From the NCBI GenBank assembly GCA_036479435.1, contig JAZGFI010000147.1:25866-89865 (forward strand): DNA of 64,000 bases, in the 5' to 3' direction. Source of the DNA: Planctomycetota bacterium (GTDB lineage Bacteria; Planctomycetota; GCA-002687715; DRQF01). Of this stretch, positions 44,231 through 55,737 are shown piece after piece; within the stretch, counting starts at the first letter, position 1; each line of letters starts with the position of its first letter. The position numbers and the translations under genes were made by a program. A model generated the notes under the pieces. It did not search any database and was not told the origin of the DNA. It saw only the letters and a list, made by a program, of their open reading frames with translations.

Positions 44231-47200
44231 TTGAGCGAAGGATCTGCAGCGAAACCGTCGCAAGGCACATCCGAGTTTGTCTTGAGCGGACTCGCGGGAT
44301 TGATGGCTCTACTCTTCCTCACCGTTGTGGAGGCTCTCCGCCTTCAGCTTGGTTTGGGTGAGGCGAAGGCTTGGTTGTGGCTCCTCATCGACTTCGCTTC
44401 GTTCTTGCCTTTTGTTGCCGCCTTCGTGACCGCTTTTGTGGTGTTGTGGCGAGCACCGCAGCGTCTCGGCGTCGTGATCCTCGCGGTCCTGCTCGCTGGC
44501 TCAGCGTTGTGGTTGGGTTTAGAGCTTGGCAAGGGGGCTGGCCTTCAACGGCAAGGCTTGCAGTTTTTGCCGCCCTTGTTGTTGCCGCTCACCGCGTTCT
44601 TGGTCCCTTGGTTTACACATCGTCTCATCCGTAAACGAGCTTGGGATACGCCCCTGCGCTTTGCTGTCTTGTTGCTGCTGGCCGCGATGGCGGCTGGCTT
44701 CGCCAATGCCCGCTACTTGGTCGGTCTCTACGCTTCGGTTCATGTCGCTCTGTGGTTCTTGGAACTGCTGCTGCTCGCTTTGGGGATTCGCTTTTTGCTC
44801 GCGCACTGGCGCCTCTTCGCCTTCGCGCCCTCGTCGCAGGGCGTCAAGATGCCCGCGGCTCTGCTGAGTTTGGCAGCCGCTGTCGTCGTCAGTCTTTGCT
44901 TTTTGCCACTTGAACTGGATTTAGACGAGGCCACTCGCTCTCGCTACGGGCGGCTTGGTTTGCGCTCGGCGCAAATTCAGCGCTGGCGGGGGCAAGTCGT
45001 TGAGTTGGACGGACAGTATGACCGAGCCCTCATCAACTCATTTGAAGCCTGGTCCGATCGAAGTGCCGCGGCCCAATCTCGTCTACCCGCCGATCGCAAC
45101 TGGAATCTGATCTGGATCTCCATCGATACTCTACGCGCCGATCGGATGGGCGCGGTCGCAAACAAGAACAGAAATTCCGAGTCTCTAACGCCCGCCCTCG
45201 ATCGCTTTGCCAAAGAGGGCGCGGTCTTCGATTGCGCCTACTCGCAATACCCCTCGACGCACCTTTCTACCGCGTCCATGTTTTCGGGGCGCTACCCCAA
45301 AGCGACCACGCTGTTTCGCCAATTGACGGGCTCGGTCTTGCCCGATGACGATCCAGATTTGGCGCTGACCGCACTCTTGAAACAACAGGGTTTCGCAACC
45401 TCGGCCTCGGTGGCCTTTACCGACGAATGGATGGGGCATCCGACCTTCGCCAAGTCGCTCGCTGACTTCGACCGCGTCAACTTCGCCCGCCCCGGCGCTC
45501 CTGAGCTGGACGCAAAGCACTTCGTTGAAAGCGCAAAATCCAGTTTGCTCCAGATGGCAAACCAACGCTCGTTTTTGTGGTTTCACATTTTTGAACCGCA
45601 TGCTCCCTACGATCCGCATCCGGGGCTCACTAAGGGCGACGACGCGATCGCCCGCTACGACGGCGAAGTCGCCTATGCCGACCAGCAGGTGGGCCGCCTG
45701 CTAGAGACTTTGCAGCAGCAAGGCGTCTTTGAGAACACGATCGTGGTCTTGAGCTCCGACCACGGGGAGTCTCTCGGCGAACATGGTTTGCGCTTCCACG
45801 GTTCAAGTCTTCGCCAAGAGCAGGTCCGCGTGCCGCTCGCTCTCTACTACCCGGGCATCAAGCCGCAACGGCGTTCCGAGCTGGTGGGCAACGTCGACAT
45901 CTACGCGACCCTCGTCGATCTTTTGGCCCTCGACGGTGCCCCCAAGACCCAAAGCCGAAGCCTTTTGCCTTTGGTAAGCGGCAGCGCTGAAGATCGCGCC
46001 GCCTGGCCCAACCTGGCCTACATGGAGCTACCCGACGACGTCAAAGAACTGAGCGCCGCGAGCGCCAACGTCGCCGCCTTGGTCGAGGGCAAATGGAAGC
46101 TCATCCGGCATCTAAGCGGTGGCTACTCTGAACTCTTCGACTTGGAGTTAGACCCGGGCGAGAACAGCGATCGTTCAGCCGACCACCCCAAGATCAAAGA
46201 AGGTCTTGAGAATCGCCTGTACACAATGGCGAAATGGACCAAGGAGTTTGGCCGTAAAAGCTCCTTTGAAGACCAAAAGAAAGCACGGCTTCGAGAGTTA
46301 CGCGACCGACTTAAGGCAAGTGATCCCCTGGCGAGACTTGCGGCGCTTCGCGAGGCGAAGATCGAGGACCCAGACGCCTTCATTGACTCCGCCTTGGCGT
46401 TCGCCCGCGATGGAAAGGAGTTTCCGGAGATCCGCTTGGAAGCTTTGGAATTGCTCTCGGCGTCGAAATCAAATACTGCATCCGCCGCACGCGCATCCGC
46501 CCGCAAGTCCCTTTTCGAAGCTCGCGACCCAGCCATGCAGGCGGCAGCCCTGGCAACGATTCCCCTGGGCGAGAAAGTGTCATCCAGTTTGGTGGGGAGA
46601 TCAGCGAGCAGCTTCGCCATTGATCAGTGCACGCTACTGGCATTCGCCAGCGATGATTTGAATGACGAATTCTATGATGTTTGGCGGCTACAAGAGACGG
46701 CAAATGGCTCGCTAGAACTCGTTCGGCGTGCCGCACTCGCTGAGCTTCTGCGTTCGGACTATTCGGACGCGGCGGTCGACAGTCGAAGGATTGACCAGTA
46801 TTCGTGGAGTGAACAGGAAAAGACGCTCATCGCCGAGCACTTGCTCAAGCGAAATCCGAATGTCGCGTATGTTGTTTTCGAACGATGGGTGCGCGATCGG
46901 TATCTTGAGCCTTCTTTGCGAAAGCTGATTCTCACCAAGTCATCGACGTTTCCGAAAGAGCCGCAACGTGAGTTGGCTCGGCATTTGTTGTCGGGGTGGG
47001 ATCCTTCTTTTCACCAGCTGGCATTGATGGTGCTTACGGATCGATTCGACGCCGAGACGGTAAGGGCTTTGGCGCGCTGTCGCGAGATTGAGGACGAGGT
47101 CGAGGGCGCTCAGAAAAAGGAAAATTGGCTGGGAATGATGACGGCTTTGCAAGTTCTCCTCGATAGTCTGCCTGCGGATAGTGGGCAATTACGTGTTCAG

Positions 47201-48190
47201 CTCGCCTTGCTGCGGGCCGCGAATGCCGCAGGGAGGCCAGGCCCAGCGGCCGCGGTGCGGGCTTCGTTTGCAAAGTGGGTGCCCAAGATTTCGGCGCGAT
47301 GGCGACTGAACTCAGAAAATTGGCTCAAGGACGCCTTGATCGCCGAGTTGTGGGAAGTCACTCAATCTCAGGTAATCCCGCTATCAGAGGACTCCGAGAT
47401 CAAGATCCTCGCGATCGATCTTGCGGAATGCGCCAGGAGAATTGTCTCCCCGGGGCAAGACCTCAAGCTAAAGATAGCACTGTCGAACCGGTCGAGATTT
47501 GCGCTGCCGAGCGGACCATTCGCACGTGGTGGCCGCGTTCGTGTGTTGTGGCGCAGAAATAGTGGTGGCGACATCTTGTATGGGGATGAACGCGCGATCA
47601 GCCCGGGTTTGGTTCCCGAAGAGGACGGCTGGCAATGGATCACAGTTTCTGCCCCAAAGGAACCCGGCGACTGGCGCGGCCGCGTCATCATTCACCAGTG
47701 GGGCGGGCCACGTTTTCATGTGGCAGAGACGGACTCTTCGCTCTTTGACATCAAAGTCATCGATCCTTTATCTATTCCCGCGGAGATCGACTTCAACGCC
47801 GCAGAAATGGCCCAGCATTTTGAACCCGGAGAAGGTGTTGTGTTTTGGGGTCTAGAGGCTCCCGGCAAAGCCTGCCGATCGCTCATCAAAAGCTATCGCG
47901 GCAGCTTTTTGACGCCACCTTTCCTCTTCGACGGTGCATCAAAAGTCCTTAGCCTAGATCTCGCCTGGCTCTCCGCCTCAAGCGACGCCATGCACTTGTT
48001 TGTTCGTTTCGTTCCCATGGACGGAAATTCGCCGCCGCTCAAACAAAAGAGCTTCGCCGTCCTCAGGGATGGCGTTCGCCGACAGATGACACTTCCACTC
48101 GGCCGGCCCCAAGGCAGCTACCGCCTCGAAATCATCGTCGGCGGTAGGCCCGGTATCCTCGAGCTTTGGAAGTTTGCGATCGGCGGCTAG
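44231..48190 (+). CDS. Membrane-anchored sulfatase/alkaline-phosphatase superfamily protein with HEAT-like and beta-rich C-terminal domains
   Basis: About 7 N-terminal TMs; SIDTLRAD, YPSTHLSTASMFSGRYP, EPHAPY, YDGEVAYAD, SSDHGE, ELFDLELDPGE. Confidence 0.85.
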   Translation: MSEGSAAKPSQGTSEFVLSGLAGLMALLFLTVVEALRLQLGLGEAKAWLWLLIDFASFLPFVAAFVTAFVVLWRAPQRLGVVILAVLLAGSALWLGLELGKGAGLQRQGLQFLPPLLLPLTAFLVPWFTHRLIRKRAWDTPLRFAVLLLLAAMAAGFANARYLVGLYASVHVALWFLELLLLALGIRFLLAHWRLFAFAPSSQGVKMPAALLSLAAAVVVSLCFLPLELDLDEATRSRYGRLGLRSAQIQRWRGQVVELDGQYDRALINSFEAWSDRSAAAQSRLPADRNWNLIWISIDTLRADRMGAVANKNRNSESLTPALDRFAKEGAVFDCAYSQYPSTHLSTASMFSGRYPKATTLFRQLTGSVLPDDDPDLALTALLKQQGFATSASVAFTDEWMGHPTFAKSLADFDRVNFARPGAPELDAKHFVESAKSSLLQMANQRSFLWFHIFEPHAPYDPHPGLTKGDDAIARYDGEVAYADQQVGRLLETLQQQGVFENTIVVLSSDHGESLGEHGLRFHGSSLRQEQVRVPLALYYPGIKPQRRSELVGNVDIYATLVDLLALDGAPKTQSRSLLPLVSGSAEDRAAWPNLAYMELPDDVKELSAASANVAALVEGKWKLIRHLSGGYSELFDLELDPGENSDRSADHPKIKEGLENRLYTMAKWTKEFGRKSSFEDQKKARLRELRDRLKASDPLARLAALREAKIEDPDAFIDSALAFARDGKEFPEIRLEALELLSASKSNTASAARASARKSLFEARDPAMQAAALATIPLGEKVSSSLVGRSASSFAIDQCTLLAFASDDLNDEFYDVWRLQETANGSLELVRRAALAELLRSDYSDAAVDSRRIDQYSWSEQEKTLIAEHLLKRNPNVAYVVFERWVRDRYLEPSLRKLILTKSSTFPKEPQRELARHLLSGWDPSFHQLALMVLTDRFDAETVRALARCREIEDEVEGAQKKENWLGMMTALQVLLDSLPADSGQLRVQLALLRAANAAGRPGPAAAVRASFAKWVPKISARWRLNSENWLKDALIAELWEVTQSQVIPLSEDSEIKILAIDLAECARRIVSPGQDLKLKIALSNRSRFALPSGPFARGGRVRVLWRRNSGGDILYGDERAISPGLVPEEDGWQWITVSAPKEPGDWRGRVIIHQWGGPRFHVAETDSSLFDIKVIDPLSIPAEIDFNAAEMAQHFEPGEGVVFWGLEAPGKACRSLIKSYRGSFLTPPFLFDGASKVLSLDLAWLSASSDAMHLFVRFVPMDGNSPPLKQKSFAVLRDGVRRQMTLPLGRPQGSYRLEIIVGGRPGILELWKFAIGG

Positions 48191-49353
48191 CCTTGAAAGA
48201 AGACACGGCCTTCTTGGGCCCGTTGCACCAAAAACTTCGCGATCTCGGGACGCATGAAGGAGGGGGGAGGGCTGATGCCTTCCGCGAGCATTGCGCGCAC
48301 TTGCGTGCCGCTGATCTGTTCCCAATCTTCGCTGTGCGGGCAGGTGTGCTCGGTCACGATGGCTTCGCAGGTGTTGCACCAACACGGACCATGCAAGCGC
48401 ATGATCTCGATGCCGAGGTCGCTAGCGAAATGGTCCACGATCTTATGGCCGGCGTACTTTTCGTAGTAAGAACCAACCCCGGCGTGGTCGCGACCGATGA
48501 TGAAGTGCGTGCAACCGAAGTTTTTGCGGATGATGGCGTGAAAGATCGCCTCGCGGGGACCTGCGTAGCGCATAGCGGTGGTGAGCGCCGCGAGCATGAC
48601 GTTCTTTTTGACGTAGTAGTGCTCGATGAGTTTCTCGTAGCCCTCAAGGATGACCTCGGGCTGCATGTCGCCTTTTTTCTTCCAGCCGATGAGCGGGTGG
48701 ATCAACAAACCGTCGACCTGTTCGAGGGCGGTTTTTTGCAGCTGCTCGTGGGCGCGGTGGCCGAGGTTGCGGGTTTGGAATCCGACGATGCGCTTCCAGC
48801 CTTTTTTGGCGATGGCGGCGCGGACTTCGCGCGGTGAGTAGTCGTAGCCGCCGGGAATCAGACTCGCCGAGCGTTGCAAAAGCTCGATGTCTCCGGCGAT
48901 GAGTTTCGGACCCCAAAGCAGGAGTTGGCCGACACCGGGATGTTCGCCGTCGGTAGTGGTGAAGACCTGTTGTGCGAAGTTGTCGCGGTCGTACTCAAAG
49001 ATCTCGCTCACGCTGATGATCGCGGAGATCGAACCATCGGCGGAGTTGATAATCGCAGCGTCTTTGCCAACGCTGACCGCGGCGGCTTCTTTTTCGCTGG
49101 CATGGAACACGATGGGGATCGTCCAAGGGACACCCTTTGATGTGTACATGTTCGCGAGCACGGCCTTCATGTCCGCTTCGCCCATGAAACCGGTCAGCGG
49201 GCTAAAGGTGCCGTTGGCGATTTTTTCGGTGTCGAGAATGAGGTTGCTGTTGGCCGACAAGGTCGGAAGCGTCTTCGCGTAAGCCAAGCGTTCGGCGACG
49301 CGATCTTGGGGGCAGCTTCTGTCGATGAGAGTGCCGCCTAAAGGTTCATTCAT
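48187..49353 (-). CDS. sat: Sulfate adenylyltransferase (Sat-type ATP sulfurylase)
   Basis: FSPLTGFM, FQTRNLGHRAHE, MRYAGPREA, RKNFGCTHFIIGRDHAG, ISGTQVR. Confidence 0.93.
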   Translation of the reverse strand: MNEPLGGTLIDRSCPQDRVAERLAYAKTLPTLSANSNLILDTEKIANGTFSPLTGFMGEADMKAVLANMYTSKGVPWTIPIVFHASEKEAAAVSVGKDAAIINSADGSISAIISVSEIFEYDRDNFAQQVFTTTDGEHPGVGQLLLWGPKLIAGDIELLQRSASLIPGGYDYSPREVRAAIAKKGWKRIVGFQTRNLGHRAHEQLQKTALEQVDGLLIHPLIGWKKKGDMQPEVILEGYEKLIEHYYVKKNVMLAALTTAMRYAGPREAIFHAIIRKNFGCTHFIIGRDHAGVGSYYEKYAGHKIVDHFASDLGIEIMRLHGPCWCNTCEAIVTEHTCPHSEDWEQISGTQVRAMLAEGISPPPSFMRPEIAKFLVQRAQEGRVFFQG

Positions 49354-51083
49354 TTCTTGACCTTTTCGCTAGTGAGGTTGGCGCGCGCATCGCGGATACG
49401 CGGGAAGACCTTTTCGCGGGAGATGCCGAGGTCGGCGAGGGTGTCGTTGTCGGCCCAAGCGCGGTTTTGGGTGTAGCAAGTGTTGATGACTTGGCCCTTG
49501 TCGGCGAGTCGTTCGATGGCCAGCGTCAAAAACGCCATCATGTCGCCTTCGCGCACCAAAGCGTCAAGCTCGTCCCACAGGATACGGGCGCCGTGGGCAG
49601 TGAGTTTTGCCAGGCCGATGAACTCGCCGTGGGCTTTGTCGTTGCCGAGCTCTTTCGAGGCCTTGACGATGAGGTCATTTTTCATGATGACTTTCTCGTC
49701 TTCGGCGTCGAGGCTTTTGCGCTTATCGACGGCCAAGACGATGTCGCCGTCGGTCGCCATGAGGTCCTCAAGGATGCTCGGTTCGAAGATGATATCGCCG
49801 TAGACGACGATGAGATTGCGATCGAATTTGCGGGCCAGCCACAGCGAAGTCGCCATGTTAGTGACCTGAAAGAAGGGGTTAAACACAAAGTCGCCGCGGA
49901 ACTTCTCGGCGCGAAGGTAGTGTTCGACTTGGCGGTTGTTGTGTCCGGTGACGACGCTGACGCGACCCGAGGGGATGCCCGCCAACTCCAAGTTTTGCAG
50001 TTGGTGCTGCACAATGGTCGAGCCACCGACGTCCAGCATGCACTTGTGCTTGTTGGTCGTTAGTGAACCGAAACCGTTGGAAGGGCCGGCCGACAAGATG
50101 ACGGCGTCCATGTCGCGTTCGAGGCGGTCATGTACCGTCATCGCGACGGTGTGCATGGTGTCGATGCATTCGACCGGGTACTCGCCGATCGCGGTTTCTT
50201 CTGACAGCATCAAGATCGCAGCCCCATCGATAACGGCGTTAGCGATGTCGGATACTTCCGCCATCGTCGGCAGTGGATGCGTCATCATCGACAACAAAAA
50301 CTGCGAAGCGATGACCACGTCAACGTCGAAGATCTTCGCGCGATCGAGCACCATCTTTTGGGTGAGCGGAACGTTTTCTTTGCCAATTTCGGCTTCGAGA
50401 TCGCCGCGATCGATCATGATGACGTCGGCGTCTTTCAAGATCTTGTCGACGGATTGAACCGCTTCGGCAGTTTCGACTTTAGCGACAAGTCGGATGCCCG
50501 TGCCGACGAGCTGAGCCTTCATGCGGCGTACGTGTTCGACGCGGCGCACAAACGACAGCCCGATGTAGTCCACGCCCGTTTCAATGGCAATGTTGAGCAG
50601 GTCAATATCCCGCTCGAAATCGAAGGGGATCTCGCCGTGGATGCCCTTGACGTTGACGCCCTTGCGGTTGGCGAGGGGCCCGCCGACAATGACTTTGGTT
50701 TTGATGTTTTCGATTTCGATGGCGGTCACTTCGAGTTTGATCGTTCCGTCCGCCGCTGACATCAAGTCACCGGACTTGAGGCTCTTGTAAAAGGGGCGGT
50801 AGGTGAGCATGTCCGGGGTCAAGACGAATTCTTGTCCGGCTTTGAGCTGGATCGGCTCTTTGATGTTGTCGGTGCGGACTTTGTTGCCCGGCAAGTCCAA
50901 GAGGATCTCGACGCCTTTGGGAAGGTCTTTACGCAGGCCCTTGATCATCTTGGTGACGTCATCCAAAGAGCCGTGGGCTCCGTTGACGCGCGCGATGTTC
51001 ATTCCGGCCGCATGGAACTTGATGAGCCAACTTTTGGCGGCGGTTTTGGGGCCAATCGTGCAGATGAATCGCGGGGTCGGCAT
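49350..51083 (-). CDS. Fusion of a divergent pyruvate-kinase barrel (aa 1-~324) and a LicC-type nucleotidyltransferase (aa ~325-577)
   Basis: ICTIGP, ARVNGAHG, AKVET, DRGDL, SEETAIGEYP; then AVILSAG..KCML, YGDIIF, GEFIGLAKL, WADNDT. Confidence 0.85.
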   Translation of the reverse strand: MPTPRFICTIGPKTAAKSWLIKFHAAGMNIARVNGAHGSLDDVTKMIKGLRKDLPKGVEILLDLPGNKVRTDNIKEPIQLKAGQEFVLTPDMLTYRPFYKSLKSGDLMSAADGTIKLEVTAIEIENIKTKVIVGGPLANRKGVNVKGIHGEIPFDFERDIDLLNIAIETGVDYIGLSFVRRVEHVRRMKAQLVGTGIRLVAKVETAEAVQSVDKILKDADVIMIDRGDLEAEIGKENVPLTQKMVLDRAKIFDVDVVIASQFLLSMMTHPLPTMAEVSDIANAVIDGAAILMLSEETAIGEYPVECIDTMHTVAMTVHDRLERDMDAVILSAGPSNGFGSLTTNKHKCMLDVGGSTIVQHQLQNLELAGIPSGRVSVVTGHNNRQVEHYLRAEKFRGDFVFNPFFQVTNMATSLWLARKFDRNLIVVYGDIIFEPSILEDLMATDGDIVLAVDKRKSLDAEDEKVIMKNDLIVKASKELGNDKAHGEFIGLAKLTAHGARILWDELDALVREGDMMAFLTLAIERLADKGQVINTCYTQNRAWADNDTLADLGISREKVFPRIRDARANLTSEKVKK

Positions 51084-51226
51084 GGTGAAGGCATCCGGGG
51101 CTCGAGGTAAAGGCGGCGTAAGGCCTTTATGATAGGCTTCCGACGCGAATTCAAGCAGTCCCCGGCCTCACTTGCATCTTGATTCAACGGGGATCTTGCC
51201 GCTTCAGCCGGGAGAACAGCGAAGGG

Positions 51227-53110
51227 ATGAACGAAACCGAGGATCCAGCCCGCGAGCAGCCCGCCCGCGCCTCGGAGCTGCTTCGTTTGCGTTGGCCGAT
51301 CTTGTTGGCGCTGGCGGCCCTTCCCGCGCATATTTTTGATGCGGAATTCGTCCGGGCCCTGAATCCAGACCGCCCCTTTGCCCTCGATAGCACGGCCTTG
51401 TGGTTCGACCATTCCTCCACCCGCAGCCTTTTGGCCTTCTTTTTTGTCCTGTTCTTTTTGGGATTTGGCGTCCGTCGGCTGCGCCATTGGCGTTTGCCAG
51501 CCACGGCTTTCGCCATGGCCTGGATTTGCGAACAGCTCATCGTGGGGGTTTTGAAGCGCGTCGTCGCGCGCCCGCGACCGATTCATCCGGACGGAATCTT
51601 AGAGTCCTTGCGCCCGCTTTTCGACCACGCGGATTTGAAGAGTTTTCCCTCCGGTCATTCGGGCACCGCGTTTTGCTGTGCTCTATTGATCTCGCTGTGG
51701 GCGCGGCGGCCCTTGGTGACGTGGATAGCTTTGTCCTTTGCCGGTCTGGTCGCGATTAGCCGGTCCTATGTGGGCGCTCACTACCTCTCCGACATCCTAT
51801 TCGGCGCGGCGGTAGGGTGGGCGACGGCGATCGTAGGGTGGAAAGCGGCGGTCATCGCCCGTCGAAACGTCGAGATCTTGGAATTCAGTTTCGGCCAACG
51901 TTGTCTTTTTTTGTTGGCGGCCCCCATCGCGTTTGGGTGGCTGTTCCAGTCGCCCCTGGAGCTGCTGCTGTACCCTGCCGCTCCCGAACTCCAGCTGGTA
52001 TCGCGGCCCACGGCTTTTTCGCTGTTGACCGAACCAGTGACCGGGCCTGCGCTCGAAGTAGCGTCTTGGCCGGAGCTAAGGATTTTTCTTTACGCCGGCG
52101 CACTGTGGTCCATGGTCATTGCGCTGGCTTTGGCCTTTTTTGCCAAGCGTCGCGGGATTCTCGCCGCCGCCGTGATGCTTGTGATGGCCGTGGTCATCGT
52201 GGCCTTGGCGTTGACTGGTCAGGCCTTTGGGCCGAGGCTGAGCGTTGAGAAGAGCCCGGGAGCCGCTTCCTGCCTCGTGGCCGATTTCCAGTCGCACTTG
52301 GACGATCCCGTTGACGGCGCGCAGTCGATGGCGTCTGGCTTGAAGAGGTTCGAGACCGCCGGATTCAGCTATGTCCAACCCACTTGGCACAACCGCTGGG
52401 TTGAGGGACGGGTGCTGCGCGACGGAAAATGGGAGAAATCGGGTATCTTTGGGATGGAGTGGAGTGGGGGGGCTCCGACCGAGTCGGTCCTACACCTGCT
52501 CATCTTTAGTCGCGACGCAAAGCCCGCTGATCTGGGGTCGGAGGCTAGTTTTAGTCGCCTGCTGTCGCGAGCGGCCCAAGCCGGAGCCGTGGTCTACGCT
52601 TCTCATGCTTGGCGCGGAGATGAGGGCGGCCTTCGACCCTTGTTCGAACCGGCAAACTTGGCCCGGCTAACCGGCGTCGAGATCGCGGGGCGTCATCAAG
52701 AGATCGCTAGCCACACCTTGAAGAGACAAGAGGCCCTGCGCGCTCTGGCGAAGGAACACGGGTTGAAGATGTTGACCGATAGCGATTTTCACGGAAAGCG
52801 ATCGGCGAACTCGCACTGGAATCTTATCTTGATGCGGGACGGCGAGTCGGACGTCGATGCGGTTTGGGCCGCTTTGAGCGACCGGGAGCGTAAGGTCACC
52901 ACGGTGGCCGCGGACCGCCCCTTCGTTTGGCCGACAGCGAATGCTTGGCTCAGGCCGCCTTTGGCCGTTCTGCGTTATTCCCGCGGGCTGACTTTGGCGC
53001 AGCGCTGTTCGTGGTTCGCATGGCTGGGACTGGCGTTTTTGGTCCTAGGGCTGTGGAAACGTCGGGGCCGAGTTTTAGAATCGAGACGTTTGGCGCGCCG
53101 AGCAATCTAG
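51227..53110 (+). CDS. PAP2 phosphatase fused to a PHP-like domain, membrane protein
   Basis: LKRVVARPRP, SFPSGHS, SRSYVGAHYLSD; then DFQSH, GMEW, HLL, SHAW, DSDFHG. Confidence 0.8.
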   Translation: MNETEDPAREQPARASELLRLRWPILLALAALPAHIFDAEFVRALNPDRPFALDSTALWFDHSSTRSLLAFFFVLFFLGFGVRRLRHWRLPATAFAMAWICEQLIVGVLKRVVARPRPIHPDGILESLRPLFDHADLKSFPSGHSGTAFCCALLISLWARRPLVTWIALSFAGLVAISRSYVGAHYLSDILFGAAVGWATAIVGWKAAVIARRNVEILEFSFGQRCLFLLAAPIAFGWLFQSPLELLLYPAAPELQLVSRPTAFSLLTEPVTGPALEVASWPELRIFLYAGALWSMVIALALAFFAKRRGILAAAVMLVMAVVIVALALTGQAFGPRLSVEKSPGAASCLVADFQSHLDDPVDGAQSMASGLKRFETAGFSYVQPTWHNRWVEGRVLRDGKWEKSGIFGMEWSGGAPTESVLHLLIFSRDAKPADLGSEASFSRLLSRAAQAGAVVYASHAWRGDEGGLRPLFEPANLARLTGVEIAGRHQEIASHTLKRQEALRALAKEHGLKMLTDSDFHGKRSANSHWNLILMRDGESDVDAVWAALSDRERKVTTVAADRPFVWPTANAWLRPPLAVLRYSRGLTLAQRCSWFAWLGLAFLVLGLWKRRGRVLESRRLARRAI

Positions 53111-53130: not shown

Positions 53131-53196
53131 GCACCTGACAACAGGACCGAGTTGCTTATCGCGCCTGACAACAGGACCGAGTTGCTTATCGCGCCT
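53131..53196. repeat. 30-bp tandem duplication spanning the PTS IIA stop codon
   Basis: GC(A/G)CCTGACAACAGGACCGAGTTGCTTATC twice (53131, 53161), then GCGCCT. Confidence 0.9.
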
Positions 53197-53680
53197 CGGT
53201 GAGAATGGCGACGGCGCTTTTGGTGTCTTTGGTGCCGAGGAGGCGGTTGCGCACTTGCTCGTCACGGAAGTAACGCGTGATGAGGCCGAGGATCGAAAGG
53301 TACTCGGTATGGCGCAACTCAGGGGCCGCAATCATGAAGATGATGTGGACCAAGCGGCCGTCTTGGGAATCAAAGGGGATTCCGGTCTTCGAGAGACCGA
53401 CCACCATGCAGAATTCTTTGACTTGCGCGATCTTGGCGTGGGGCACGGCCAAACAGTGACCAATGCCCGTCGACAGGATTTTCTCACGGTCTTTGATGGC
53501 GCGCCGGAGCTTTTCTTTACTGGTCACCTCTTTGCGGCGAGCCAGCGCCTCAATGAGGATCTCCAAAGCGTCGATCTTGTTCTTCGTTTCGAGCCGTACG
53601 ACCCCCCGCGCGTTGACGAGCGCTCCGAGGTCGAAGGTGTAATCCTGCGGTGAATAGGCCATGCCCGGACGATACGGCAT
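53186..53680 (-). CDS. ptsN: PTS EIIA (Ntr/fructose-type) protein
   Basis: REKILSTGIGHCLAVPHAK, GIPFDSQDG..VHIIFMI; start may be ATG 53662. Confidence 0.8.
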   Translation of the reverse strand: MPYRPGMAYSPQDYTFDLGALVNARGVVRLETKNKIDALEILIEALARRKEVTSKEKLRRAIKDREKILSTGIGHCLAVPHAKIAQVKEFCMVVGLSKTGIPFDSQDGRLVHIIFMIAAPELRHTEYLSILGLITRYFRDEQVRNRLLGTKDTKSAVAILTEAR

Positions 53681-53762
53681 CTGCCGGGGAAATCAACTGG
53701 AGAAGCTCCCCCAGGGAGCTAAGATACCGCGCTAATCGATTAGAACGGAATGAGGTGGCAAG

Positions 53763-54704
53763 ATGTCGGACGTTCTCAACACCAAAGTGGCAATCATCGG
53801 GTCGGGGCCCGCGGGCTGGACCGCGGCCCTCTACACGGCAAGAGCCAACCTAGAGCCCATCGTTTTTGAGGGCCTTCAGCCCGGCGGGCAGCTGACGATC
53901 ACCACGGAAGTCGAGAATTTCCCGGGCTACCCCGAAGGCATTCAGGGCCCCGACATGATGCTTGAGTTCAAGGCTCAGGCGGCGCGCTTCGGCACGGTGA
54001 TCAAAAGCGAGCAGATCGTCGAAGTGGACTTTTCACAACGTCCCTTCCGCCTAAAGGGAGATGAAACCGAAGTCCTCGCGGACACCGTGATCATCTCCAC
54101 TGGCGCCACCGCGCGCTACATGAACCTGCCCGGCGAAGATGCCTTCCACAACAAGGGCCTCAGTGCCTGCGCCACTTGCGACGGGTTCTTTTTCCGCGGC
54201 AAGGACTTGGTCGTCATCGGCGGCGGCGACTCGGCCTGCGAAGAGGCGACCTTCCTCACTAAATTCAGCCCCAAAGTCACCATGATCCACCGTCGCGACG
54301 AATTCCGCGCCAGCAAGATTATGGCGCAGCGCGTCTTTGACAACGACAAGATCGACGTCAAATGGAACACGAACTTGAAGGGCTACCACGGCGACGACAA
54401 CGGCGTCATCGTGGCGGTTGATCTTGAGAGCACCAAGACCGGTGCAATCGAGAAGTTCCCGACCCAAGGCGTCTTCATGGCGATCGGCCACAAACCCAAC
54501 ACGGGCATCTTCAAGGGCAAGATGGAACTCGACAAAGCGGGCTATATCATCACCAAGCCTGACTGCACCCTTACCGACATTGAAGGCGTCTTCGCTTGCG
54601 GCGACGTCCAAGATACGGTTTACCGTCAGGCGATCACCGCTGCCGGTTCAGGTTGCATGGCCGCTATCGACGCCGAGCGTTGGTTAGAAGCTCACCACGG
54701 ATAA
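53763..54704 (+). CDS. trxB: Thioredoxin-disulfide reductase
   Basis: IIGSGPAG, GGQL..TTEVENFPG, CATCDG, GGGDSA, HRRD, RQAITAAG. Confidence 0.97.
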   Translation: MSDVLNTKVAIIGSGPAGWTAALYTARANLEPIVFEGLQPGGQLTITTEVENFPGYPEGIQGPDMMLEFKAQAARFGTVIKSEQIVEVDFSQRPFRLKGDETEVLADTVIISTGATARYMNLPGEDAFHNKGLSACATCDGFFFRGKDLVVIGGGDSACEEATFLTKFSPKVTMIHRRDEFRASKIMAQRVFDNDKIDVKWNTNLKGYHGDDNGVIVAVDLESTKTGAIEKFPTQGVFMAIGHKPNTGIFKGKMELDKAGYIITKPDCTLTDIEGVFACGDVQDTVYRQAITAAGSGCMAAIDAERWLEAHHG

Positions 54705-54822
54705 GTTCTTGGTCTTTCATCCTGTTTCGCTCGCCTCGAATTCATTTTCATTTGGGGCGGGTGTCGTTTTGCTTGGGCCCCGGCGACAGCCGCAGGGCTT
54801 CATCACAGGGGTTTGACGCCTG

Positions 54823-55737
54823 ATGAGCCTCGGAACGCTCTTTGACAAAGCGCTGGCCGCGATGCTTCCCATCGTGCCGCGACCGATCGTGCGCAAGGTC
54901 GCCTGGCGCTATGTCGCTGGCGAGAGCCTCGACGATGCCGTTGCCTGCATTAAGCGTTTGAACGCCAAGGGTGCCATGGCCACGCTGGATGTCTTGGGCG
55001 AAGAGATCGCCAGCCTTGACCAAAGCCATGAAGCCGTTGCCGCCTACCTCGATGCGCTCGATGCCATCGAACGCGAGGGCCTCGATGCCAACATCTCCAT
55101 CAAACTGACGGCGTTTGGCCAACGACTTGACGAAGAGGTCATGCACCAAGGCGTGGTCAAAGTCCTCGAGCGCGCGATTGCTTCCAAACGCTTCGTACGC
55201 ATGGACATGGAAGACAGCTCGACAACTTCGGCAACTTTGGACTATTACCGTCGCTTACGAAAAGAGGGCTACGGTGACGAGCAAGTCGGCGTTGTTCTTC
55301 AGGCCTACATGCGGCGTAGCCGAGCGGATGTCGCGGATTTGTCTGCCCTTGAGGCCAGTTATCGGCTCTGTAAGGGAATCTATGTCGAGCGCGAAGAAGT
55401 GGCCTTCAAAGAGTTCGCGGAAGTACGCAGCAACTACCTCGCGCTTTTGCGGCAGATGTTTGAGGCCGGAAGTTACGTCGGTATTGCCACTCACGACCAC
55501 TACCTTGTCGACGAAGCCGAAGACTTGATTCGTGAACTTGGTCTAGCGAAAGAACAGTACGAATTCCAAATGCTCTTGGGGGTCGACGAGCCCTTAGTGC
55601 AACGTCTCATCGGCGCCGGGCATCGCCTTCGGATCTACGTTCCCTACGGCAAAGACTGGTACGCCTATAGTATTCGCCGTCTAAAAGAGAACCCTCGGAT
55701 CGGTCGCTACATCCTCATGGGAATGTTCAAGAAATGA
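54823..55737 (+). CDS. Monofunctional proline dehydrogenase
   Basis: RYVAGE, DVLGE, SIKLT, RMDMED, RLCKGIY, ATHD, EFQMLLG, YVPYG, RRLKE. Confidence 0.92.
   Translation: MSLGTLFDKALAAMLPIVPRPIVRKVAWRYVAGESLDDAVACIKRLNAKGAMATLDVLGEEIASLDQSHEAVAAYLDALDAIEREGLDANISIKLTAFGQRLDEEVMHQGVVKVLERAIASKRFVRMDMEDSSTTSATLDYYRRLRKEGYGDEQVGVVLQAYMRRSRADVADLSALEASYRLCKGIYVEREEVAFKEFAEVRSNYLALLRQMFEAGSYVGIATHDHYLVDEAEDLIRELGLAKEQYEFQMLLGVDEPLVQRLIGAGHRLRIYVPYGKDWYAYSIRRLKENPRIGRYILMGMFKK

Follow-up and report, generated by a model that had tools for sequence, protein, structure and literature searches.

Why should a protein with the fold of pyruvate kinase (PK) be joined to a nucleotidyltransferase (NTase)-like domain and encoded in overlap with an ATP sulfurylase? 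The question is raised by a gene on the minus strand of a 64,000-nucleotide stretch of a Planctomycetota bacterium (assembly GCA_036479435.1, contig JAZGFI010000147.1, positions 25,866 to 89,865; the whole stretch is called the window below). A preliminary description, made from the sequence alone, had taken the product for a kinase-then-activate enzyme supplying a nucleoside diphosphate (NDP)-activated small phospho-acid to a surface polymer, and not for a glycolytic PK. By surveying relatives, gene neighbourhoods, conserved residues and predicted structure, we find that the fusion is likely an accessory of ATP sulfurylase (Sat) in the transfer of sulfate to an envelope lipid or glycan, and not an enzyme of glycolysis.

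The fusion gene and its link to ATP sulfurylase

The features of the fusion gene and of its overlapping partner are as follows.

49350..51083, minus strand: fusion gene for a DRGD-type PK-fold barrel and a PntC/LicC-like domain (577-residue open reading frame (ORF), Pfam matches, AlphaFold model)
50115..51083, minus strand: PK-fold barrel with lid and without regulatory C-domain, residues 1-323 (Pfam, alignment)
50630..50870, minus strand: lid (B) domain, limits approximate, residues ~72-151 (absent from 480-residue Omnitrophota-type fusions)
50394..50411, minus strand: DRGDLE motif, residues 225-230 (D225 in place of the ARGD Ala, E. coli PykF A243; defines the subfamily)
49353..50114, minus strand: cytidylyltransferase-like domain, residues 324-577 (D430, D545, D547, K477 and E487 kept)
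50034..50087, minus strand: remodelled signature loop G-P-S-N-G-F-G-S-L-T-T-N-K-H-K (without an Arg15 equivalent; His346 conserved)
48187..49353, minus strand: ATP sulfurylase gene (sat), 388 residues, in 4-nt overlap (ATGA) with the fusion stop codon (above NCBIfam cut-offs)

The fusion is real and not an artefact. Both domains lie in one uninterrupted ORF (577 residues, 51083..49350), positions 48000-51300 were found on one contig with zero differences in three of four sequencing runs (which may include the source of the present DNA), and an alignment brought together 84 homologous fusions with the lid and 20 without it; these homologous fusions in relatives and the intact contigs in the runs ruled out an assembly artefact or a chance fusion. 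GC content per codon position was equal in both halves of the gene, and promoter and terminator scans of the DNA stayed at chance level. Pfam assigned residues 5-307 to the PK barrel and 327-456 to NTP_transf_3 and gave no match in the fusion protein to PK_C (PF02887), in agreement with the proposed loss of the usual C-terminal regulatory domain, and the NTase part was found to begin near nucleotide 50111, as had been claimed. The quoted motifs were all located, in the barrel (RVNGAHG 32-38, GNKVR 66-70, AKVE 201-204, DRGDLE 225-230, ASQFL 259-263, PTMAE 272-276 and MLSEE 292-296) and in the NTase part (AVILSAG 327-333, GPSNGF 333-338, KCML 347-350, YGDIIF 428-433, GEFIGL 486-491 and WADNDT 543-548). 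In an AlphaFold model of both domains, built from a 37-sequence alignment (mean pLDDT 91), the best structural match of the barrel was PK (Z 38.2, root-mean-square deviation (rmsd) 2.4, 324 residues aligned) and that of the second domain was PntC (6PD1; Z 29.3, rmsd 2.2, 237 aligned), followed by IPCT, GlmU and LicC.

The linkage that carries our interpretation is to sat. The sat beside the fusion was the only one found in the genome, its motifs QTRN, HxxH, MRYAGP and GRDHAG are intact, and its product scored above cut-off for TIGR00339 and PRK04149. Across 26 distinct fused loci (30 rows minus 4 duplicates), sat lay within 4.5 kb of the fusion in 25, the exception being L006, and the same distance held for 39 of 45 non-redundant loci of stand-alone barrels (84 loci reduced at 85% identity) and for 22 of the 23 that have 1.5 kb or more of sequence on each side; neither sat nor cysC was found near ARGD-type control PKs at any of 66 loci, which were returns of the same pattern search. 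This neighbourhood survey makes ATP sulfurylase the near-constant partner gene of the barrel, and it is a partner that the kinase-then-activate reading leaves out. Nor does the barrel serve mainly the NTase, which is missing from all 45 non-redundant stand-alone loci.

The two locus types differ in a further respect: a CysC-type kinase accompanied the stand-alone barrel in 29/45 loci (18/23 of those well flanked), and no cysC or adenosine 5'-phosphosulfate (APS) kinase was found in any of the 26 fused loci, all of which carry the NTase. Most CysC proteins of the module resemble true APS kinases, and among 26 DRGD representatives, picked for length, there were nine barrel-APS kinase fusions and two barrel-ATP sulfurylase fusions. 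The stand-alone neighbours that were annotated (49 of 104 candidates in one set, plus others) included P-loop sulfotransferases, TauE and CPA2 transporters, CysQ-type and PHP phosphatases, and TagF-like and CDP-alcohol transferases. The surface-polymer setting foreseen in the preliminary description is borne out, the fusion sitting in envelope-glycan contexts.

The fusion was found in 22/22 genomes of the same order at 55-71% identity (one copy cut by a contig end) and in 0/18 other genomes of the same phylum. A separate canonical pyk, with the motifs RLNFSHG, ARGDLG, PTRAE and MLSGE, lies on another contig of this genome, and an ordinary PK match was obtained in each of the 22 same-order relatives. 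In a FastTree tree of 178 rows (midpoint root, lid-less rows left out, sample favouring PKs near the query), the Asp rows fell outside a support-95 branch that holds the genome's own pyk together with 85/86 ARG-labelled rows; five tree labels taken from the sequence pattern were wrong, and column-based classes were used in the counts. The earlier view that this is no glycolytic PK thus holds, on the separate pyk here and in the 22 relatives and on the separate tree branch, and the identity of a glycolytic pyk was ruled out by the canonical pyk and the tree position.

Beyond the order, the best 120 of 2653 protein matches comprised full fusions, 480-residue lid-less fusions (some named Omnitrophota) and stand-alone barrels of ~319 residues. 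The subfamily ranges over Planctomycetota, Omnitrophota and gut Clostridia and is annotated 'pyruvate kinase' throughout databases; we found no description of it in the literature, subscription journals being mostly outside the coverage. A DRGD barrel probably also sits in a Campylobacter capsule locus, since the capsule genes of C. jejuni ICDCCJ07001 are listed as including an antiporter, a PK barrel and a sulfate adenylyltransferase (PMC2993937, Table 3). Viral contigs gave no match, and none among 343 plasmid records covers 80% of the query.

Residue patterns of the two domains

By alignment column, position 225 in the lid-bearing rows was Asp in 83, Ala in 93 and Gly in 2 (rows L036, L053, P0246, P0265 and P0272 being ARGD by column), and in this alignment the change from ARGD to DRGD is diagnostic of the subfamily. 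Of the altered PK motifs that had been offered as evidence all were present, DRGD being the diagnostic one and MLSEE failing as a marker: Glu at the MLSGE glycine also occurred in 48/93 ARGD-type PKs, a sample enriched for MLSEE by the search pattern used, and the 66 ARGD loci returned with that pattern had no sat nearby. The phosphate- and metal-binding residues R32, N34, D63, R70, K202, E204, D228, S294 and E296 were kept in 83/83 D-type rows and in 9/9 lid-less sequences (9 of the 20 entered these counts), so that the K-x-E and RGD metal core noted earlier (K202, E204, D228) is invariant in the subfamily. The pocket residues Met223 and Met292 were kept in 28/83 and 32/83 D-type rows, compared with 90/93 each in ARGD PKs. 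The pocket and lid residues we take, from PK structures, to lie at the pyruvate and adenosine sites, and the Ala replaced by Asp225 (Ala243/293) presumably lines the pyruvate site. The inter-subunit Arg of PTRAE, mutation of which is reported to abolish L. mexicana PK activity (PMC3467265), was present in 2/83 D-type as against 92/93 ARGD rows and is Met274 in the present protein. The lid-less forms have lost the lid and keep His37 in 0/9. Taken together, the alignment points to a phosphoryl-handling centre that is conserved, a pyruvate site that has changed and a nucleotide lid that can be dispensed with.

Measured against PK (PF00224; TIGR01064; E. coli PykF, G. stearothermophilus 2E28), the barrel shares the barrel-and-lid fold, the R/N/D/K/E/D/S/E residues and ~35-40% identity, with the catalytic Arg, Lys, Glu, Asp and Thr/Ser all present. 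It lacks the ARGD Ala, the PTRAE Arg, the PF02887 C-domain and the grouping with ordinary PKs, and it differs further in the fused NTase, the lid-less variants and the sat linkage. TIGR01064 passed the fusion protein narrowly (311 vs 306 bits), on the barrel alone.

These counts bear on the explanation that the barrel is still a PK, now unregulated, which regenerates ATP from phosphoenolpyruvate (PEP) for sulfate activation, with the NTase part being separate or a nucleotide sensor that replaces the C-domain. Such a role would fit the retained catalytic R32, K202, E204, D228 and T/S260, the existence of DRGD barrel-APS kinase fusions, and the precedent of a 321-residue barrel-only Entamoeba histolytica PK held in the Protein Data Bank (PDB) as pyruvate kinase (8IW2, Z 33.2, 24% identity), which like the fusion protein has barrel and lid and no C-domain. 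It sits badly with the Ala-to-Asp change in 83/83 rows, the lost inter-subunit Arg and the absence of lid and His37 from the lid-less forms; the fused loci have no ADP-releasing partner and every genome has a normal pyk. The precedent itself is not favoured by the DRGD profiles, 8IW2 lying outside the 60 best PDB matches of two of them, and its membership is uncertain. We judge ATP regeneration unlikely, if a serious contender.

Two architectures were noted in passing: P0197, P0225 and P0273 are DRGD barrels with an N-terminal helix-turn-helix (HTH) and a retained C-domain, and may be regulators, and P0088, on a contig of 1.9 kb, combines a close barrel homolog with STAS and cNMP-binding domains, as a real fusion or a chimera.

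In the second domain, profile alignment to PntC spans the whole domain (E 7e-17), and the metal-site acids and the fold of the PntC/LicC/IPCT cytidylyltransferases are retained. PntC is reported to require Arg15, Lys25 and Lys153 and to bind the substrate amine through Glu104 and Glu196 (PMC6697681). As the preliminary description had pointed out, the G-x-G-x-R loop reads GPSNGF. There is no Arg15 equivalent; this position was Gly in 96% of the 84 lid-bearing rows, and Arg was outside the three commonest residues in both fused groups. The Lys25 equivalent, K347, was kept in 98% of the 84 lid-bearing rows and was T/Q/V in the 20 lid-less rows, the Lys153 equivalent is kept in the fused domain, and the His before the Lys25 position (His346) was present in 98% of lid-bearing and 100% of lid-less rows. 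Glu104 and Glu196 correspond by profile alignment to Tyr428 and Phe518, the second position being less certain. Judged by these residues, the fused domain is neither a PntC nor a LicC, and in it the triphosphate contacts look dispensable and the metal site does not. In comparison with PntC (6PD1/6PD2), LicC (1JYK) and IPCT (4JD0, 2XME), the fused domain therefore keeps the whole-domain fold, the metal-position acids and the Lys153 equivalent, and departs from them in the missing Arg15 equivalent, in Tyr/Phe at the Glu104/Glu196 positions and in the conserved His; the loci annotated also differ from PntC/LicC systems in having no PEP mutase or choline kinase. A phosphonate or phosphocholine pathway was rejected, the amine-binding acids being missing and neither PEP mutase nor choline kinase being among the annotated neighbours.

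A search for a stand-alone Arg-less NTase gave 29 matches and no candidate was retained: the close ones look like short-contig fragments, several with PK sequence, and the rest are ~30% identical. A stand-alone NTase of ~30% identity with the canonical Arg loop (L183:1645-2379 (G000:C278), and L184-L186) belongs to a conserved gene cluster that also holds an ABC-transporter-like gene.

The loss of Arg15 and, in lid-less forms, of the Lys25 equivalent, each needed for PntC activity (PMC6697681), would suit the idea that at least one of the two domains has no catalysis of its own and serves as a ligand sensor or scaffold, regulating or stabilising ATP sulfurylase, as would the DRGD proteins with an N-terminal HTH. 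Against it stand the metal and phosphate residues of both domains, invariant across lineages that are only 35-45% identical, and the specific transferase partners that track the fusion; we think such a non-catalytic role improbable.

A proposed role in sulfate activation and pyrophosphate removal

This genome (92% complete) yielded no APS kinase. No AprA, sulfite reductase or convincing CysH/CysD was found in it either (a PF01507 match was marginal only), and on these grounds assimilatory and dissimilatory sulfate reduction were rejected for it. Sulfotransfer_3 (PF13469), the single sulfotransferase family searched, was likewise not found in this 92% complete genome. Across the order, 11/23 genomes have an ATP sulfurylase and no APS kinase was found in them, which points to an undescribed use of APS. 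According to PMC3734648, the formation of APS is strongly endergonic and has to be drawn forward by cleavage of pyrophosphate (PPi), by APS kinase or by reduction, and diatoms have PPase-ATPS-APSK fusions. A family I pyrophosphatase (PPase) match was obtained in 3/23 genomes of the order, one of them partial, and family II in 0/23. The only family I match of this genome, G000:C6:14587-15090, carries an in-frame TAG (a pseudogene or a sequence error), and that of G003 has no such stop. The fusion protein has no Pfam match to family I or II soluble PPases, and any PPase role proposed here is one of working like such an enzyme, not of family membership.

In six genomes of the order, sat is directly followed by a gene for a CDP-alcohol phosphotransferase, and in five by one for a signal-less alkaline phosphatase (AlkP)-family protein. 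An ortholog of the former was found in 17/23 genomes and of the latter in 5/23, with both together in none; G021, a 76% complete genome whose contig ends inside sat, has neither. For nine further protein pairs, a shared longest contig size suggests co-location. Neither ortholog was found in the 18 genomes of other members of the phylum, where two weak matches were to the CDP-alcohol phosphotransferase only. The CDP-alcohol phosphotransferase of this genome (G000:C59:8932-9699) has its motif intact, and in L009 and L010 the lid-less fusion has TagF-like genes next to it. The proposal of an NDP-activated donor is thus upheld in part: a CDP-alcohol phosphotransferase does co-occur, and the NTase that should make the donor is without the Arg15 equivalent and the amine-binding acids of PntC.

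We consider it rather probable that the module delivers activated sulfate. A scheme for the way in which it does so can be drawn up in four steps, every reaction of which we infer from the linkage and residue patterns observed. First, Sat, an enzyme identified by sequence, would make APS and PPi. Because APS kinase occurs in 0/26 fused loci, PPi and not ADP should be the by-product there, and because Sat releases PPi and no fused-locus partner releases ADP, the barrel is most simply a PPi sink. In the second step, the barrel would take up PPi in its beta-gamma phosphate subsite and split it, which would draw the unfavourable Sat reaction forward; it has retained PK's Mg2+/phosphate machinery, and the invariant Asp225 stands where pyruvate binds. 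Third, and least certain, the NTase-like domain may bind a nucleoside-monophosphate-sulfate as PntC binds CMP-AEP, without triphosphate contacts, and, standing in for APS kinase, hand the sulfate on to a small alcohol or to a cytidine nucleotide. Fourth, the co-occurring CDP-alcohol phosphotransferase would transfer the group to a lipid or glycan, a role that an AlkP-family or TagF-like enzyme might take in other lineages. The whole scheme, with the barrel as PPi sink, the NTase-like domain passing sulfate and a CDP-type transferase route, is put forward tentatively. It is possible, though we are more doubtful of it, that a PPi-consuming PK fold and a triphosphate-independent NTase feed sulfate or another Sat-activated anion to the CDP-alcohol phosphotransferase, TagF-like and AlkP enzymes, as a route to sulfated membrane lipids or glycans free of 3'-phosphoadenosine 5'-phosphosulfate (PAPS) and a core trait of this uncultured Planctomycetota order.

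Several observations weigh against this scheme. The barrels retain Thr/Ser260, which serves pyruvate, and mostly keep the lid residues D112 (79/83) and K141 (69/83), and the nine DRGD representatives fused to an ADP-releasing APS kinase are what ATP regeneration predicts. APS kinase occurs elsewhere in the genome in 12/23 genomes of the order and a membrane H+-PPase in 20/23; these 23 genomes are kin, and counts among them are not independent. Five of seven other same-phylum genomes with a sat match have neither a DRGD barrel nor a family I PPase match, so Sat can run without the barrel. In this genome the CDP-alcohol phosphotransferase lies on another contig than the fusion, and in L117, L120 and L151 such transferases flank stand-alone barrels with a CysC-like kinase and without an NTase, so that this link does not depend on the NTase. 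L006 (8312-13023), in a record titled Proteobacteria, has the fusion and no sat within ~10 kb on each side. Finally, the module of L142 has a phosphoramidate-transferase-family gene on one side and a Cj1415-type kinase on the other, an arrangement that favours the kinase alternative considered next.

In that alternative a small nucleophile or hydroxy acid would be phosphorylated by the barrel, where Asp225 provides a carboxylate of the enzyme's own; adenylation of the product would fall to Sat and its maturation to a CysC-type kinase or the NTase, and transferases would then link the phospho-group to a glycan or lipid, in parallel with the Campylobacter O-methyl phosphoramidate (MeOPN) pathway (Cj1415-Cj1422). 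The two share the logic of a kinase-type enzyme, a nucleotidyltransferase, a CysC-type kinase and a transferase, the present module differing in its use of a PK barrel and Sat; a PPDK-like kinase and Cj1416 presumably hold the corresponding roles in Campylobacter. PK carries out a bicarbonate-dependent phosphorylation of fluoride and of hydroxylamine. Side reactions of PK are also reported to phosphorylate lactate and glycolate (PMC12965863), and the C. jejuni ICDCCJ07001 capsule listing of antiporter, PK barrel and sulfate adenylyltransferase (PMC2993937) points the same way. At L142 (3-5110), sat, a DRGD barrel and a CPA antiporter are flanked on one side by a gene of the MeOPN-transferase family (E 2e-68, below cut-off, truncated at the contig end) and on the other by a PRK05541 (Cj1415-type) kinase gene, with no Cj1416-1420-like genes found between the two. 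An NTase and a CDP-alcohol phosphotransferase are, besides, a standard phospho-transfer pair, and the constant presence of the barrel would be accounted for. The canonical Sat motifs and the likeness of most module CysC proteins to true APS kinases speak the other way, TauE transporters and P-loop sulfotransferases indicate sulfur, and the fused form, with its two activating enzymes, would contain a redundancy unless they acted in series. The kinase-then-activate scheme therefore survives as a rival only if ATP sulfurylase takes part in the activation, and in that form we hold it to be unlikely.

Sulfuryl transfer by PK from sulfoenolpyruvate is known from older literature, and the barrel might on this precedent move the APS sulfuryl group to a pyruvate-like acceptor, giving sulfoenolpyruvate or sulfopyruvate from which the NTase and transferases build a sulfonated or sulfated head group. 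The constant Sat linkage would agree with this, as would our finding no other APS consumer in this genome. However, Asp225 likely blocks the pyruvate site, and stand-alone loci that already have APS kinase and PAPS-type sulfotransferases would leave the product no role; we regard this chemistry as very improbable.

Returning to the Sat-accessory interpretation, among the nearest known systems are the diatom PPase-ATPS-APSK fusions and the PAPS cassettes (Sat or CysDN, CysC, sulfotransferase, CysQ), which likewise place an ATP sulfurylase beside envelope-glycan genes and in which stand-alone DRGD barrels occur; the fused loci differ in having no APS kinase and in having CDP-type transferases in place. 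The partnership of the fused NTase with a CDP-alcohol phosphotransferase also resembles that of IPCT with DIPPS. To our knowledge, biological sulfation uses PAPS with P-loop sulfotransferases, or aryl-sulfate donors. Defining features of a glycolytic PK, of PntC/LicC and of a PAPS cassette are missing here; the module may be a variant of sulfate-activation modules, and that it is a new kind of pathway seems possible but doubtful. A new PPi sink or sulfate-transfer chemistry, if true, would bear on enzymatic PAPS supply, and the question, turning on one residue and a set of four genes, can be put directly to purified proteins.

Neighbouring genes and related loci

Convergent on sat in the window lies a further gene.

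44231..48190, plus strand: membrane-anchored sulfatase/AlkP-family gene, 1319 residues, without the C/SxPxR sulfatase motif

Its product is a possible downstream acceptor enzyme, of uncertain membership in the module. Seventeen sulfatase-like ORFs in this genome match the same local profile. On the other side, the divergent neighbour at window positions 51179-53110 (plus strand) encodes a PAP2 phosphatase, the C-terminal half of which looks by eye like a PHP-type metallophosphatase (Pfam gave PAP2 only), and genes similar to it flank the fusion in four other loci. Positions 53186-55737 hold a PTS EIIA-like gene and two that we take from their sequences to be thioredoxin-reductase-like and proline-dehydrogenase-like; they are found upstream of the fusion in 16-19 loci, which is probably plain synteny.

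In L006, a MurQ-like SIS gene lies upstream of the fusion and a CPA antiporter downstream. In L013:2968-10951 and in L014, a flagellin gene is accompanied by a tetratricopeptide repeat (TPR)-sulfotransferase-like gene, cysC, sat, a Mor-like gene, CPA2 and a DRGD barrel, an arrangement that makes L013/L014 a candidate flagellin sulfation locus of gut Oscillospiraceae. The L013 gene beside flagellin has, by structure-atlas comparison, a sulfotransferase-like fold, which we give as a lead only.

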